A model generated the notes under the pieces. That model saw nothing but the letters and a program-made list of their open reading frames with translations, did no database searches and was not told where the DNA came from. Positions 29,732-49,580 of a stretch of DNA of 64,000 bases are shown here, piece after piece (position 1 is the first letter of the stretch; the number at the start of each line of letters is the position of its first letter). The position numbers and the translations under genes were made by a program. Source of the stretch: Zootoca vivipara (taxonomy: Eukaryota); NCBI RefSeq assembly GCF_963506605.1, contig NC_083280.1, forward strand, positions 36,208,001 through 36,272,000, in the 5' to 3' direction.

Positions 29732-30346
29732 CTCAGGAGAGGGGAGGAGAGGGGTTTAGTTTTGTTTTTACCATGGTACATGACTTACAGAATGGCCTCC
29801 CCAGGCTAGTTCAGTTGGTGCCAACTGTGATGTCATTATGACAACTGGGAAATACATTTTTATTCCTCATGGGCATTCCAGCACATAGTGTGAGGTAGTT
29901 TTTATCTGCTCTGCCGATCTTTCACTGCTGTTATTTGTTCTGCATCTTGCTTTCAACTGTGGTTTTTACCTATTTTTTTGTTTTATTCTTTTTTTATTGC
30001 ACTGGTAGTTTACTGGAGAGTGGCCTCTAGAAATCCCTTGGACCATGAATACCCAATGTGTTGCCCTCCAGATGCTATTAGACTACAACTCCCACCAACC
30101 CTAGCCAACGTGGTCAGTGGGATAATGGGAATTGTATTCCAGCAGCTTCTAGAGGGTGCCACTTTGTCTACCTTGCTTTTAGACAAATAATATTAATGAA
30201 TAATCTTCATTATATTTTAAAATAACCCTCTTTTCTAGAACAAAGAGAGGAATTAGGGGGAGCCACTGCGCTGGATGTTCCAGTAATTGAATGTGTTTTC
30301 TGCTTTCTCTTTTGAAACCCACCAATTTGGGACTTCGCTTTGGCAG

Positions 30347-30609
30347 GAGATGGAAACTTGCACCTGAACATCACAGCAGATTCCTACAGTCATTCCCTGC
30401 TGGAGACTATTGAGCCATTTGTGTATGAGTGGACTTCCCAGTACCGTGGGAGTATCAGCGCAGAGCATGGTCTGGGCTTCAAGAAGAAGCATTATATCCA
30501 CTACAGTAAGCCCCGGGAGGCCGTCCTTCTCATGCAGCAGTTCAAGGCCATGTTGGACCCCAAAGGGATTCTAAACCCTTACAAGACATTGCCGGATAAG
30601 GCTGCATGA
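30347..30609 (+). CDS. D2HGDH: D2HGDH last coding exon
   Basis: DGNLHLN...[13 protein letters not shown]...[17 protein letters not shown]; the 9 exons total 1683 nt = 560 aa + stop. Confidence 0.96.
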
Positions 30610-33167: not shown

Positions 33168-33936
33168 CTGATGCTGATTGCTGAATACTTTGATGAGTCC
33201 ATGATCCTTCTGAAGAATATGTTATGCTGGGACCTGGATGATGTGGTTTACAGTGGTACCTCTACTTACGAATTTAATGTGTTCCGAACACACATTTGTG
33301 AGTCGAAAAAAATTGTAAGTCGAATCCCATAGGAATGCATTGGGAGAAAAAATTCGTAAGTCGAAGCAACCCTATCTAAAAATTCGTAAGTAGAAAAAAT
33401 CCTATCTAAACCGCATCCAGGATGGCAGACGGAGCTCCATTTGTAAGTAGAAAAATTCGTAAGTAGAGTTATTTGTAAGTAGAGGTACCACTGTATTTCA
33501 AACTGAACACCAGGAGCTTAGTGTTTAGACTCTGAGTCCAGAAAACAAGGAAAAGGCGAGAGATTGGTGTGCTCTGGACTGGAAACTTTACACACATTTC
33601 AATAACACCTTTTGGATTAAGATCCAAGAGAGGATGGACATAAAGACTTTGTACAAGGAGGTCGAACTTCTGCAGAAGAGACAGAAGGAACTGATGGAGA
33701 TGTGCCTCTTGGAGGAAACAGCAGTTGATGGAAGCAAAATCATAGACAATAAACTGAAGCCCTTGCAGATGGGGTATGCGAAAATCTTGGGCTATAACCT
33801 CAAGAAGGATTTAGACAATAAGACCCAGACGATCTGCCAAAAGATGATCATGCCCGAGCTCCAGTATACAGCATATCTGTACAGTCACCAGTTCCCAAAC
33901 AAGACGAGAAAACCCATAGACTTCCCCACTCAATAA
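33168..33936 (+). pseudogene. GAL3ST2: Galactose-3-O-sulfotransferase 2 relic (3' half of last exon, disrupted)
   Basis: LMLIAEYFDESMILLKNMLCWDLDDVVY/FKLNTRS...WCALDWKLYTHFNNTFW...KILGYNLK...CQKMIMPELQY...QFP; MITE in the Tyr codon, frameshift, TAG at 33526-33528; syntenic position between D2HGDH and NEU4. Confidence 0.88.
33251..33493. mobile_element. 243-bp Tc1/mariner-type MITE inside the GAL3ST2 coding sequence
   Basis: TIRs cagtggtacctctacttac / gtaagtagaggtaccactg; TA TSD at 33249-33250 and 33494-33495. Confidence 0.92.
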
Positions 33937-39106: not shown

Positions 39107-39465
39107 GGTAAAGGTAAAGGCCATAAAGTAAAGGTAAAGGGACCCCTGACCATTAGGTCCAGTCGTGACCGACTCTGGGGTTGTGGCGCTCATCTCGCGT
39201 TATTGGCTGAGGGAGCCGGCATACAGCTTCCAGGTCATGTGGCCAACATGACAAAGCCGCTTCTGGTGAACCAGAGCAGCACACGGAAACGCTGTTTACC
39301 TTACCTATTTATCTACTTGCACTTTGACGTGCTTTCGAACTGCTAGGTGGGCAGGAGCTGGACTGAGCAACGGGAGCTCACCCCGTCGCAGGGATTCGAA
39401 CCGCTGACCTTCTGATCGGCAAGCCCTAGGCTCAGTGGTTTATCCCACAGCGCCACCTGCGTCCC
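39107..39465 (-). mobile_element. Sauria SINE
   Basis: (AAAGGT)n tail at left, head at right. Confidence 0.88.
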
Positions 39466-40031
39466 TATTAAAAAATAGTCATAAGTAAAAAAAAATACAT
39501 TATAATTTGAACATATTCAAATGAAGACATATACAAGTAATAAAAATTAGAAAAAGCAAAAAACAAAAAAACAAACCCCATAACAACAGTAGAAAGCTTT
39601 GGAAGCACACTAGCAGAAAACAACACCATCATCATTCATCCAAAATCTGGGGGAAATGTACTTTTTTTCCTGGCACTGAAAAAAATGTCAGCGAAGGCGC
39701 AAGGCAGACCTCACTGTTCCACAAAGAGGGTTTATTAAAAGAATTCGAACAGGCCTGCAGCAAGTTCTCTCCTAGGTCAGGAGTGGGGAACCTATAGCCT
39801 CCCAGAAGTTGTTGGACTCCAACTCCCATCATCCCCAACCCAACATGGCTGGCTATCGGAGATTATGGGAGTAGCAGTGCAACAACATGTGAAGAGCCGC
39901 AAGTTCCCCATCCTTGTCCTCAGCCAAAGGAAGGGATGGAATTAGGTGTTGTGAGGCTTGGGTGCACATTGATTTGCTGTCCTTGAAGACAACACACACC
40001 CTTCAAAGATTTCACAGGTTCTCTGCTTACA

Positions 40032-40440: not shown

Positions 40441-40752
<312 letters not shown>

Positions 40753-41278
40753 TGACAGGACTGAAACTTAAGGCGTAGAGGAAATTATCTGTGACATCCT
40801 TGTGAGTTTCCCACAGGCATCTGGTTGGCCACTTTGAGAAGAGGATGCTGGACTAGATGGGCCTGATCTAGCGGACTGTTCTTGTATCTGTCTCTGCGAT
40901 GCGCTTTCTTTGCCACTTCTTTTGTTGTCAGGAATAATATAACTGGTGCCTCTTGATACTCTAAAACTCCCACCTTGTTCAGCCACACATATAGCAACCG
41001 TAATAACCAAGAATGGACCAGAGCAAATTAAATGATCAATATAGTAGTGCCTCTGGTTATGAACTTAATTCCTTGCGGAGGTCCATTCTTAACCTGAAAT
41101 TGTTCTTAACCTGAGGTTTATACCTGGTTTCTCTTTAAGGTTTCCAGACTCAAAAGAGAGCAGGGCAATTAAAGGCACAGAAGTCCTGTTCTCTATTGAG
41201 TCTGGAAACCCTACCGGTAGATGCCGGGGAAGAAAAATGAATTGGCTTCCTAACTCTTTTACCATCTTTCTTTGCCAG

Positions 41279-41534
41279 TGGGAAGATATGCGAGCCCTTG
41301 AAACAGCAACTCTGGCACACCATCGGTCCATGAACCCTTGCCCTATCTATGATGAGCTTACAGGCATGGTTTTCTTGTTTTTCATTGCTGTCCTGGGCAG
41401 AACCCCTGAAGCCTTTCAGATCATCACAGGCCAAAATGCTGCCCGCCTCTGCTACGTGTCTAGTTCTGACCAGGGCATCAGCTGGAGCCATGTGACTGAT
41501 CTCACCCAGCAAGTTATTGGCGTGTCCATTGAAG
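41279..41534 (+). CDS. NEU4: NEU4 coding exon 2
   Basis: HRSMNPCPIYD...SSSDQGISW Asp box. Confidence 0.95.
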
Positions 41535-42758: not shown

Positions 42759-42945
42759 AGGGCTGTAGCTCAGCGGTAGAGAATGTACCTTTCATGCAGA
42801 AGGTCCCAGGTTCAATCCCTGGCATCTCTAGGTAGGACTGGGAGAGACTCCCTCTCTGAAAGCCTGGAGACCTGTTGTCAGTCAGCGCAGGCAGTCCTGA
42901 GCTAGATGGACCAATGTGTCTGACTCCATATAAAGCAGTTTATAT
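42759..42945 (+). mobile_element. tRNA-derived squamate SINE (Squam3-like)
   Basis: gggctgtagctcagcggtagag...ggttcaatccctggcatctc head, then SINE body. Confidence 0.72.
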
Positions 42946-42995
42946 TCATGACTGTTGTCATTGTTCCTGACACTGTCTTTTCCCTTTTGCTTCAG

Positions 42996-44047
42996 ACTGG
43001 GCCACTTTTGCGCTAGGCCCCGGGCACGGCATTCAACTGAAGTCAGGCCGCCTGCTATTGCCAGCCTATGCTTACCACATCGACTGCAAAGAGTGCTTTG
43101 GGAAGCTCTGCAAAACCACCCCTCATGCTTTCACCTTCTACAGCGATGACCACGGGCAGAGCTGGCAGTTTGGCGAGTTCATCCCAAACCTGCAGACCGT
43201 CGAGTGCCAGATGGTGTCGGTGGATGAGGAGGACGGCAGCAACGTGCTCTACTGCAACGCCAGGAGTCCTCTGGGCTTCCGGGTGCAGGCCCTCAGCACG
43301 GATGATGGGGCCGTATTTCACTCAGGCCAGCTGGTGCAGCGGCTTGTGGAGACCCCGCACGGTTGCCATGGCAGCATCATCGGGTTCCCAGCTCCGCTTT
43401 ACTATTTGCAGCGCAACACTTGCGTATTCCAGAGAGACACCCGCTCTGATAAAGATGTGGGCTTCCTACCTCAGGGTTGGTCTGATGAGAAACACCCACC
43501 TAGTCTTGCCTCACCTACCCCTTTTTTCTGCAGCCAGTCTCTGAGCCACCGACAGCCTCAGGAAACAAGAACTTCTAGTGTCTGCTCTGGTCACCTCTCA
43601 TCAGGTAAAGGACATGCTGATCCAGAACATGCTAAAGCTGGAAGTATTTCGCAATCGGGCTTTTCTTTCCAAATGCCAACGTGGGTGCTGTATTGCCACC
43701 CAACGAGCTCCAGATCCCGAGTCAACCTGGGGATTTACCTCAGCACCTTTCCTAGGGATGCTGAGAGCTGGACTGAGCCCTGGGTTATTTACGAAGGCCC
43801 CAGCGCCTACTCCGACCTGGCCTACATTGAGCTGCCTTATCCAGACTTGTCAATAACTGGGATCCCAGCCATAGCTTTTGCCTGCCTGTATGAGAACGGG
43901 GTGCGGTCCCCCTATGAGCAAATATCCTTCAGCATGTTCACGTTGCATGAAGTTCTTCAGAACATTCCTCTCGCAACTTCTGCCCCAGGTTTGAAGCAGC
44001 CGTCAGGTGGTAGAAAGAGAAAGGGGAAGAGTTGTGTTATTTCTTAA
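42996..44047 (+). CDS. NEU4: NEU4 last coding exon
   Basis: WATFALGPGHGIQL; Asp boxes SDDHGQSW and STDDGAVF; NEU4-type Ser/Pro-rich insert; EGPSAYSDL; the 3 exons total 1509 nt = 502 aa + stop. Confidence 0.96.
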
Positions 44048-44328
44048 AGGTCATGGCAGAGGGTCAAACTTAATGTCATGCTAAAGATGTCACTAGAAAC
44101 CATGTCAATTTTTATATTACTAATATCAAGCGCGAAGGCAGATTTTCATAGAGAATGCAGCAAGCAAGAAGGAGTAGAGGTTTAATCTTTCCCTCCTGTT
44201 GTATTCTGCTGAGTTTGCGTTTTGTTAATTTTGCCCCTAGGAGCACCCAGTAGCTGAGGAAGGAGGTGGAAGGAAGGAGAAGAGAGAGGGAGCTAAGAAT
44301 ATGGTTGAGAATGTGGCTGGAGGTTATC

Positions 44329-44334
44329 AATAAA
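44329..44334 (+). terminator. Probable NEU4 polyadenylation signal
   Basis: AATAAA about 280 nt after the stop codon. Confidence 0.55.
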
Positions 44335-44791
44335 GCTCTATTTGAAAATCATTAGAATATCTTTCTTCTGGTTGAAGGAATAATACAAAACCCCTACAAG
44401 TAGGAAAGCATAATGCAAAAGCCCATGGGATTCTTTCCAAAAGAATTATCTCAGATATCCATTCAAACTCCAGTTCCTATGCTATCACCACTACTTTGCT
44501 TTCAAACAATGAAACACACAAAGTAGAGAAAGCGACCTATGCACTTAGACCAGCCTTCTGTATTGGCTTTTTGGAGGGGGGCGGGAGCAGGGGGGGGCAG
44601 GGAGTGGGAAATCCCCTATGTGCCAAATGGATGCTGATATCAGCTAAAGGGATTTCATTCAGGACAGTGGTATTAGCTGTATACCCCCTGCCCGGCACCA
44701 GCACCTTATGCATAAAAAAACCAACCCTGCACATTAGATGCAAAGACACATAAATGTCACATCTACTTTAGCCCTGTAGTAAGAGAGTGAA

Positions 44792-45140
44792 GGGACCCAG
44801 GTGGCACTGTGGGTTAAACCACTGAGCCTAGGGATCAGAAGGTCGGCGGTTTGGATCCCTGTGACGGCGTGAGCTCCCGTTGCTTGGTCCCAGCTCCTGC
44901 CAACCTAGCAGTTCGAAAGCACGTCAAAGTGCAAGTAGACAAATAGGAACCGCTATAGCGGGAAGGTAAACGGCGTTTCCATGTGCTGCTCTGGTTTGTC
45001 AGAAGCGGCTTTGTCATGCTGGCCACATGACCTGGAAGCTATACGCCGGCTCCCTCGGCCAATAATGCGAGATGAGCGTGCAACCCCAGAGTCGGTCACG
45101 ACTGGACCTAATGGTCAGGGGTCCCTCTACCTTTACCTTT
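44792..45140 (+). mobile_element. Sauria SINE, full length
   Basis: TSD AAGAGAGTGAA at 44781-44791 and 45141-45151. Confidence 0.92.
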
Positions 45141-49028: not shown

Positions 49029-49218
49029 CTATTTCTTTTCACATAAGCCACAGAAACATCCAAAAAAGCCATTGATGATCTGGAGAACAGCAAGGACCAT
49101 TTCCACTGTGCTGATGATTAAGAGAGCCGAGAAGAAATAGACATTCCAGCTCACAATATTATGTGGCTCGATGCACACTTTGTTCCAAAGGGGAGGATCA
49201 TACAAATAATTTTGAGTC
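49029..49218 (-). CDS. TM4SF19: Transmembrane 4 L6 family protein (TM4SF19-like), coding exon 4
   Basis: TQNYLYDPPLWNKVCIEPHNIVSWNVYFFSALL...INGFFGCFCGLCEKK-TAG. Confidence 0.8.
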
Positions 49219-49580
49219 CTTAAAGGAACAGATTTTGAATGAGAAAGTTGCAAGTGAAGAGACATTATAAACGAAGGATAAGGGAAAGCTGTTCAATCAG
49301 GAGATGTTATTTTTTGTACATTTTAAAATAATAATAATTTATTACTCATACCCTATTCCTCTGACTGGGTTGCCCCAGCCACTCTGGGAGGCTTCCAACA
49401 GAATATTAGAGAAAGATTAGGTAAAGATTTCCGGATTTACTGGGTTACTGAGTATGCTATCCTGTGCACCATTTTTCCTTGAATGGTTTTACACTTACAA
49501 TATAATATTAAATCTTGTCTTCGCTGGTTGCATTGTCTCAAGATCCATGTGGTTGCCCTTCCAACATCATCATTGTAGAA

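Follow-up and report, generated by a model that had tools for sequence, protein, structure and literature searches.

Farnesylated proteins that end in a CaaX box at the C-terminus are finished by RCE1 and ICMT in an established pathway, and in K-Ras4B a basic run accompanies the box. The K-Ras4B box is CVIM, and a review table lists CVIS as the ending of GNGT1 (transducin gamma) and CLVS as that of GRK1, both farnesylated, and CAIL as that of GNG2, which is geranylgeranylated (PMC7674641). The vertebrate sialidase NEU4 is a membrane enzyme whose membrane side and attachment are unsettled; reviews place the mammalian protein at the endoplasmic reticulum (ER), the outer mitochondrial membrane, the lysosome lumen and the cell surface (PMC11416241, PMC12428829). 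We analysed 64,000 nucleotides of the lizard Zootoca vivipara (contig NC_083280.1, positions 36,208,001 to 36,272,000 of the forward strand; the window), which hold a NEU4 gene whose product ends in a polybasic tract followed by the box CVIS. The Cys fourth from the end, hereafter Cys(-4), is Cys499 in the lizard and is the predicted site of farnesylation.

As read from its sequence, the window gene is an intact NEU4 sialidase, a six-bladed propeller of the BNR/Asp-box type with an F/YRIP-type motif. The three coding exons (Table 1) have GT/AG ends and join into 502 amino acids with zero internal stops. Four of these differ from P0002, the sialidase-4 annotated for Zootoca vivipara, and the agreement with it over the last exon is 99%. 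YRVP lies at residue 22 and Asp-boxes at 129, 202 and 253; Pfam finds BNR repeats (PF13088, E 2.6e-27), Foldseek matches the model to NEU2 (E 3.7e-40), and a quick tree places P0002 inside the NEU4 clade (SH-aLRT 98). Orthology is supported by this tree, the three coding exons, a long loop and synteny, and the exon count and loop agree with PMC3431349. The C-terminus closes a 358-codon frame (42971-44047, + strand). As the preliminary description of the window had it, the protein ends in a polybasic tract and a CaaX box: positions 44009-44047 translate as GRKRKGKSCVIS followed by the stop, with Arg next if the reading is carried to 44050.

No GT[AG]AG donor is present within 43900-44047, and unspliced contigs span the tail and stop (X2, 43930-44141; also X3, X5 and X6), all from four runs that were guessed, not recorded, to be RNA. 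Among the contig differences listed, the 39-base tail has a single one, which is synonymous, and the next 37 bases have 11 sites. The raw RNA reads X21-X23, at a depth below 1 on the last exon, were uninformative. Of 1416 frames of at least 30 amino acids that end in a stop within the window, 58 have a Cxxx end and 4 a strict CaaX; a strict CaaX whose Cys is preceded by at least four K/R within 10 residues occurs once, in NEU4.

The sauropsid set comprised the best 120 of 847 matches (all named ones sauropsid). Because its query contained the tail, scoring in two further searches (best 120 of 391 and best 120 of 1004) was confined to N-terminal regions, and the tail was not selected for in those sets. 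Cys(-4) was found in 115 of the 120 sauropsid rows, and the other five are annotated as partial and end in or before the basic run. The second set (best 120 of 391) had it in 112/120 rows and the teleosts (best 120 of 1004) in 98/120, mostly as CSVS. Among placentals, 67 of 73 rows carry it (71 from the best 120 of 391 and 2 from other searches); after three non-homologous tails were dropped (P0337, P0346, P0351), the placental set comprised 64 rows. All five marsupials have it (CVTS, CGTS, CVIS), as do the platypus (CTTS) and single rows of bowfin (CSVS), the frog Staurois (KKKGKCKTS), bamboo sharks (CCPIT) and elephant shark (CCGVA), amphibians and cartilaginous fishes being thinly sampled. 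CLVS is the commonest bird ending and accounts for 26/123 sauropsid rows, and CVIS is present in lizards, alligator and Dromiciops. A strict CaaX does arise by chance, as the four window frames testify, and such counts might raise the suspicion of an error in annotation or assembly, or of a motif that one species has by chance. That suspicion is refuted by the intact gene model, the contigs that cross the stop unspliced and the same ending in other species, and we give it practically no probability.

Between the last blade and the end lie 30-43 residues in placentals, 37-47 in sauropsids and 43-87 in teleosts, with the Cys staying at -4; since the distance varies and the position does not, what the Cys follows is the C-terminus, not the fold. 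Judged by this distribution, the Cys(-4) signal is ancestral to jawed vertebrates. The suggestion that the anchoring signal is an old one is thus borne out by teleosts, bowfin, frog and sharks, and its presentation as a feature of reptiles has to be dropped, the ending being found throughout jawed vertebrates.

In the quick tree, a Cxxx end occurs in 19 of 23 rows of the NEU4 clade, many of them picked by name, versus 5 of 39 other rows; none of the three NEU3-like paralogues of the Zootoca genome has it. The sialidases with a Cxxx end outside the clade are those of lamprey (CPIL), a bamboo shark 'sialidase-2-like' protein (RKRGQHCCCTLF), killifish NEU3 (CIIF), herring NEU3 (CLLI) and an 827-residue agamid model (CLPS) (rows P0146, P0132, P0171, P0187 and P0137). 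The signal may predate the split of NEU2, NEU3 and NEU4, or may have arisen again.

The main restrictions on yeast farnesyltransferase (FTase) are reported to be D/E/K/R at position a2 and K/P/R at position X, and a1 is free (PMC10320760). The 297 NEU4 rows with Cys(-4), which represent 72 distinct endings, have zero D/E/K/R at a2 and zero K/P/R at X; the free position a1 is charged in 26 rows, from snakes, geckos, birds, placentals, characiform fishes and a frog. With uniform residues 68% of endings would pass this rule, and the nominal probability of 9e-13 overstates the departure, the rows being related. In the yeast screen, where HM values are averages over neighbours, CVIS scores 3.62 with Ydj1 (cut-off 3) and 19.7 with Ras, and CLIS, CLVS, CFIS, CAIF, CDIS and CSVS score 4.0-5.1 and 9-18, respectively (PMC10320760). 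CVIS is also positive in 4/4 prenylation and 2/2 cleavage predictors (PMC9231725). The preliminary description had called CVIS a farnesyltransferase pattern, and the same tetrapeptide is indeed a farnesylation signal in other proteins: ZAP-S given CVIS acquires the behaviour of ZAP-L (PMC12582503). The lizard tail places its Cys fourth from a free C-terminus, has permissive residues at a2 and X, and is predicted to be flexible. On these grounds we consider it likely that lizard NEU4 would be farnesylated on Cys499.

A Cys can be conserved for other reasons, such as S-acylation, a disulfide or metal binding, in which case NEU4 would be unprenylated, its likeness to CaaX incidental and the placental ending a relic. 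The paralogue NEU3 is S-acylated (PMC5482835), human-type CWPS fails four predictors (PMC9231725), and an additional Cys near the C-terminus is found in 14/123 sauropsid, 10/64 placental and 22/98 teleost tails. None of these roles, however, needs a fixed spacing of three residues from the C-terminus in tails that vary by more than 50 residues, nor do they explain why a2 is kept free of charge and X free of K/P/R; moreover, FTase is known to accept a CVIS that is exposed on a cytosolic protein (PMC12582503, PMC7674641). We regard a Cys of this kind as improbable. Other signals were rejected from known motif definitions: the terminal residues do not fit a PDZ ligand, PTS1, KDEL or KKxx, and the MG start that N-myristoylation requires is not retained in teleosts.

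The ending is CAIF, CAIL or CAII in colubroid snakes and C-x-x-F in Anolis, Phrynosoma and Heteronotia (rows P0024, P0026, P0036, P0037, P0038 and P0056). Going by these residues, the CAI[F/L/I] ending of most snakes would favour geranylgeranyl, and the distribution suggests repeated shifts towards geranylgeranylation in snakes and in the lizards with C-x-x-F. Counts in a yeast geranylgeranyltransferase I screen are 0-12 for CAIF, CAIL, CVLF and CTIL, too few to interpret.

The second element of the tail is the basic run. The 12 residues before the Cys contain on average 5.5 K/R in sauropsids, 6.3 in teleosts, 2.3 in placentals and 2.0 in marsupials, and no run of four K/R occurs in placental or marsupial tails. 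The preliminary description had staked its proposal on conservation of both the Cys and the basic tract in other sauropsids, where both have held. It had also called the anchor eroded in mammals, which is half right: the basic run is lost in placentals and marsupials, but the Cys is kept, in marsupials within CVTS or CVIS and in placentals within C-x-P-S. The run touches the CaaX box in sauropsids and is spaced from the Cys in teleosts. Sauropsids retain a Lys at -9/-10 in 86% of rows, placentals in 89% and teleosts in 81%; this Lys, 5-6 residues before the Cys, persists even with the rest of the run lost. Trp replaces basic residues just before the box in geckos (KKSWWRTCVIS; P0008, P0009, P0011, P0015, P0016) and in marsupials (KNHWKSCVTS; P0353-P0357).

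The main alternative is that the run serves chiefly as a nuclear localization signal (NLS), which with the CaaX box would bring NEU4 to the envelope of the nucleus in the manner of B-type lamins, and not, in the manner of K-Ras4B, to the plasma membrane or ER. The pattern K[KR]x[KR] is present within the last 30 residues of 88/98 teleost and 53/123 sauropsid tails, and in 0/64 placental and 0/5 marsupial tails. A 2018 paper in Biochimie reportedly described importin-dependent nuclear tilapia Neu4. In a review, tilapia NEU4 is reported to have reduced the sialic acid of glycoproteins and glycolipids in the nucleus (PMC12428829). Set against this, an NLS alone leaves Cys(-4) unexplained, the sauropsid run adjoins the CaaX box, the Trp of geckos and marsupials suits a membrane better than importin binding, and an association with membranes has been described for zebrafish Neu4 (PMC10487903). 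We therefore hold a mainly nuclear role to be somewhat unlikely; the lamin-type and K-Ras4B-type readings both include farnesylation.

An AlphaFold2 run on a 68-row alignment gave a confident propeller, the body of which matches cytosolic NEU2, with prediction confidence (pLDDT) below 50 at residues 292-375 and 480-502. The 502-residue lizard protein has no hydrophobic signal stretch in its first 20 residues, no N-glycosylation sequon and no transmembrane helix that we could see, the most hydrophobic 19-mer (1.71) falling on two predicted beta strands. These features, as predicted from the protein, fit synthesis in the cytosol. An acceptor AG lies just upstream of the ATG, so that an earlier exon and a longer N-terminus are possible, and its position suggests such an exon.

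We propose that NEU4 would be synthesised in the cytosol, that FTase would add farnesyl to Cys499, that RCE1 and ICMT would then cleave the aaX and methylate the new end, and that the farnesyl lipid and RKRKGK together would hold the enzyme on acidic cytosolic leaflets. The basic run and CVIS, carried by a tail for which disorder is predicted, probably act as a lipid-plus-charge anchor on the cytosolic or nucleoplasmic face of a membrane. Binding of the K-Ras4B kind is, by analogy, a reasonably likely form of it, if a little less so.

Placental tails have a different box. Pro occupies a2 in 61/64 of them, most commonly in CWPS, CRPS, CLPS and CQPS, and a 121-member cluster represented by gorilla NEU4 (GDKPRGCCWPS) ends in CCWPS, the ending that the preliminary description gave for the human protein. 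Residue a1 varies (W, R, L, Q, S, C) while Cys, Pro and Ser are fixed, which argues for continued constraint, and C-x-P-S looks like a constrained switch, not plain decay, as far as the alignment can tell. In the yeast data the placental endings have Ydj1 HM values of 3.95-5.30 and Ras HM values of 1.2-2.2, and all seven C-x-P-x endings looked up exceed the Ydj1 cut-off of 3 (PMC10320760). Direct Ydj1 enrichment was 2.54 for CLPS, 1.85 for CSPS, 1.83 for CQPS, 1.71 for CRPS, 1.45 for CCPS, 0.99 for CRPF and 0.82 for CWPS, compared to values of 1.61 (CASQ, shunted) and 0.49 (CVLS, canonical) (PMC10320760). By analogy with such motifs, the placental scores would be the pattern of endings that are farnesylated and left uncleaved. 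Prenylation predictors accept CLPS and CRPS in 3/4 cases, CQPS in 1/4 and CWPS in 0/4, and cleavage is predicted for none of the four; CLPS stood in the negative training set, which was derived from Ras and which, according to its authors, may include shunted sequences (PMC9231725). There is just short of an even chance, in our estimate, that placental NEU4 carries farnesyl only, remains uncleaved and is a weak anchor requiring a protein partner.

More generally, the farnesyl of NEU4 could serve protein contact or trafficking, in the style of Spindly, PEX19 or Hsp40, and not stable anchoring. The Ydj1 and Ras scores of C-x-P-S and its predicted lack of cleavage favour this, as do the retained Lys at -9/-10 in three large clades and a report that membrane association of NEU4 relies on protein-protein interactions (PMC11416241). 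Non-mammalian tails, with their high K/R content before the Cys and mostly canonical, cleavable boxes, have instead the make-up of a two-signal anchor, and we judge contact without anchoring to be unlikely.

Several observations weigh against a farnesylated, cytosol-facing NEU4. Sialylated substrates lie mostly on the side of membranes opposite the cytosol. Mammalian NEU4 has been reported in the lysosome lumen and on the surface of cells; its pH optimum is said to be acid, and its membrane binding has been attributed to proteins and not to a direct anchor (PMC11416241, PMC12428829). A farnesylated cytosolic enzyme is at odds with the reports of a lumenal or surface location; according to one review a translocation mechanism for NEU4 is still unreported (PMC11416241), and the topology of NEU3 is likewise unsettled (PMC5482835). 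One sequon column is common to 29/68 NEU4 sequences. Most CXXX sequences pass the yeast screen, which is thus a low bar, and related rows are not independent. All four predictors reject human-type CWPS, and its direct enrichment, given above, is low. NEU4 is missing from the supplements of one brain-cell prenylome, where its expression is uncertain. Finally, 22/120 teleost rows (best 120 of 1004) are without Cys(-4): 17 of these are oddly ending models known from UniRef only, three of which are contradicted by another model of the same species that has the Cys. Five NCBI models may, on their sequences, be true losses (Salvelinus, Dallia, Lampris, Merluccius and Muraenolepis; P0434, P0458, P0426, P0477 and P0459). 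Salvelinus NEU4 ends in LPRNTNS, whereas Umbra retains CNIL. It is possible that the tail-less models are natural knock-outs of the anchor.

Tentatively, and with rather less than an even chance of being right, we suggest that NEU4 may be a prenylated glycosidase across all jawed vertebrates, humans included, with a fully processed polybasic CaaX in fishes, amphibians and sauropsids, geranylgeranyl in snakes and, in placentals, a C-x-P-S that carries farnesyl only. The catalytic domain would be cytosolic or nucleoplasmic and the location of the enzyme dependent on mevalonate and FTase, and C-terminal tags that mask the signal could explain the conflicting locations; the available portion of PMC4454322 does not give tag positions for localised NEU4. 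A conserved prenylation site turns the membrane question into a single-residue matter. If the proposal is true, the topology of NEU4 is fixed as facing the cytosol or nucleus, which raises the question of its substrate, its location should be sensitive to statins and farnesyltransferase inhibitors, and the lineages offer a natural switch from a canonical to a shunt-type CXXX. NEU4 and the CaaX anchor are each known and their combination appears to be undescribed, as the preliminary description had supposed: no paper on the link was found among the matches listed from the full-text literature searched, which consists mainly of main texts, with subscription journals largely outside it. Neither NEU4 nor CWPS is mentioned in the main text of PMC11152559 or in two text supplements of PMC3188499.

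Table 1. Features of the NEU4 gene and its tail, in window positions.
Feature	Position	Strand	Remarks
NEU4 first coding exon	40516..40716	+	Met1-Asp67; YRVP motif; first 20 residues without hydrophobic signal stretch
NEU4 second coding exon	41279..41534	+	First Asp-box, SSDQGISW; contig X1 covers 41246-41470
NEU4 last coding exon	42996..44047	+	Remaining beta-propeller, low-confidence loop (residues 292-375) and tail
Predicted disordered linker and tail	43978..44032	+	Residues ~480-498, pLDDT <50; outside propeller
Polybasic tract RKRKGK	44012..44029	+	5 K/R in 6 residues; matches K[KR]x[KR] (monopartite NLS pattern)
CaaX box CVIS, predicted farnesylation site	44033..44044	+	Cys499 codon 44033-44035
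TAA stop codon of NEU4	44045..44047	+	From translation; contigs read across stop
Candidate poly(A) signal, first AATAAA past stop	44329..44334	+	Contig X6 ends at 44322

Upstream of NEU4, Pfam identifies exons of a FAD-oxidase_C protein (30316-30609, +) and a galactose-3-O-sulfotransferase (33529-33936, +); these families agree with the order expected, D2HGDH-GAL3ST2-NEU4. Downstream, a match to the L6 membrane protein (TM4SF) family at 49029-49292 (-) marks a TM4SF-like gene that points towards NEU4. A repeat of about 340 bases, presumably a Sauria short interspersed element (SINE), flanks the NEU4 coding region in two copies of opposite orientation (39125-39466 and 44791-45139) that are 88-97% alike. 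ARAGORN calls a tRNA-Glu at 42759-42830 (+), in NEU4 intron 2; because many unrelated reads map there, the call is probably a tRNA-derived repeat. Elsewhere in the genome, three tandem NEU3-like genes (L002-L004) lie at C4:97.43-97.46 Mb, and the four matches of the own-genome search include no separate NEU2-like match.

Compared with described systems, the lizard gene shares with vertebrate NEU4 the three coding exons and the long loop at residues 292-375, and human NEU2 is the nearest solved structure. The literature on vertebrate NEU4 treats membrane binding as extrinsic and leaves it unexplained, with no mention of CaaX or prenylation in the portions available (PMC3431349, PMC11416241, PMC12428829); prenyl, farnesyl and CAAX have zero matches in the main text of the metazoan sialidase survey PMC3431349. 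NEU3, like NEU4, is without signal peptide or helix and in one study is lipid-modified with a cytosol-exposed C-terminus (PMC5482835), but its modification is a reversible thioester and a CaaX is absent from all three NEU3-like genes of the lizard. Placental C-x-P-S resembles the shunt-pathway CXXX of Ydj1 (CASQ) and LKB1 (CKQQ) in its high Ydj1 score, low Ras score and predicted lack of cleavage, although the literature examined yielded no validated C-x-P-S example, and the predictors disagree, with CWPS the weakest. GNGT1, ZAP-L (ZC3HAV1) and GRK1 have tetrapeptides identical to those of NEU4 (CVIS or CLVS), with farnesylation experimental in them and predicted in NEU4. K-Ras4B, with its polybasic run and farnesylated CVIM, is a GTPase whereas NEU4 is a glycosidase, with a shorter run (5 K/R) that is spaced from the Cys in teleosts and absent in placentals; what lizard NEU4 has in common with it is a basic run directly before Cys-Val-Ile-X on a disordered tail.
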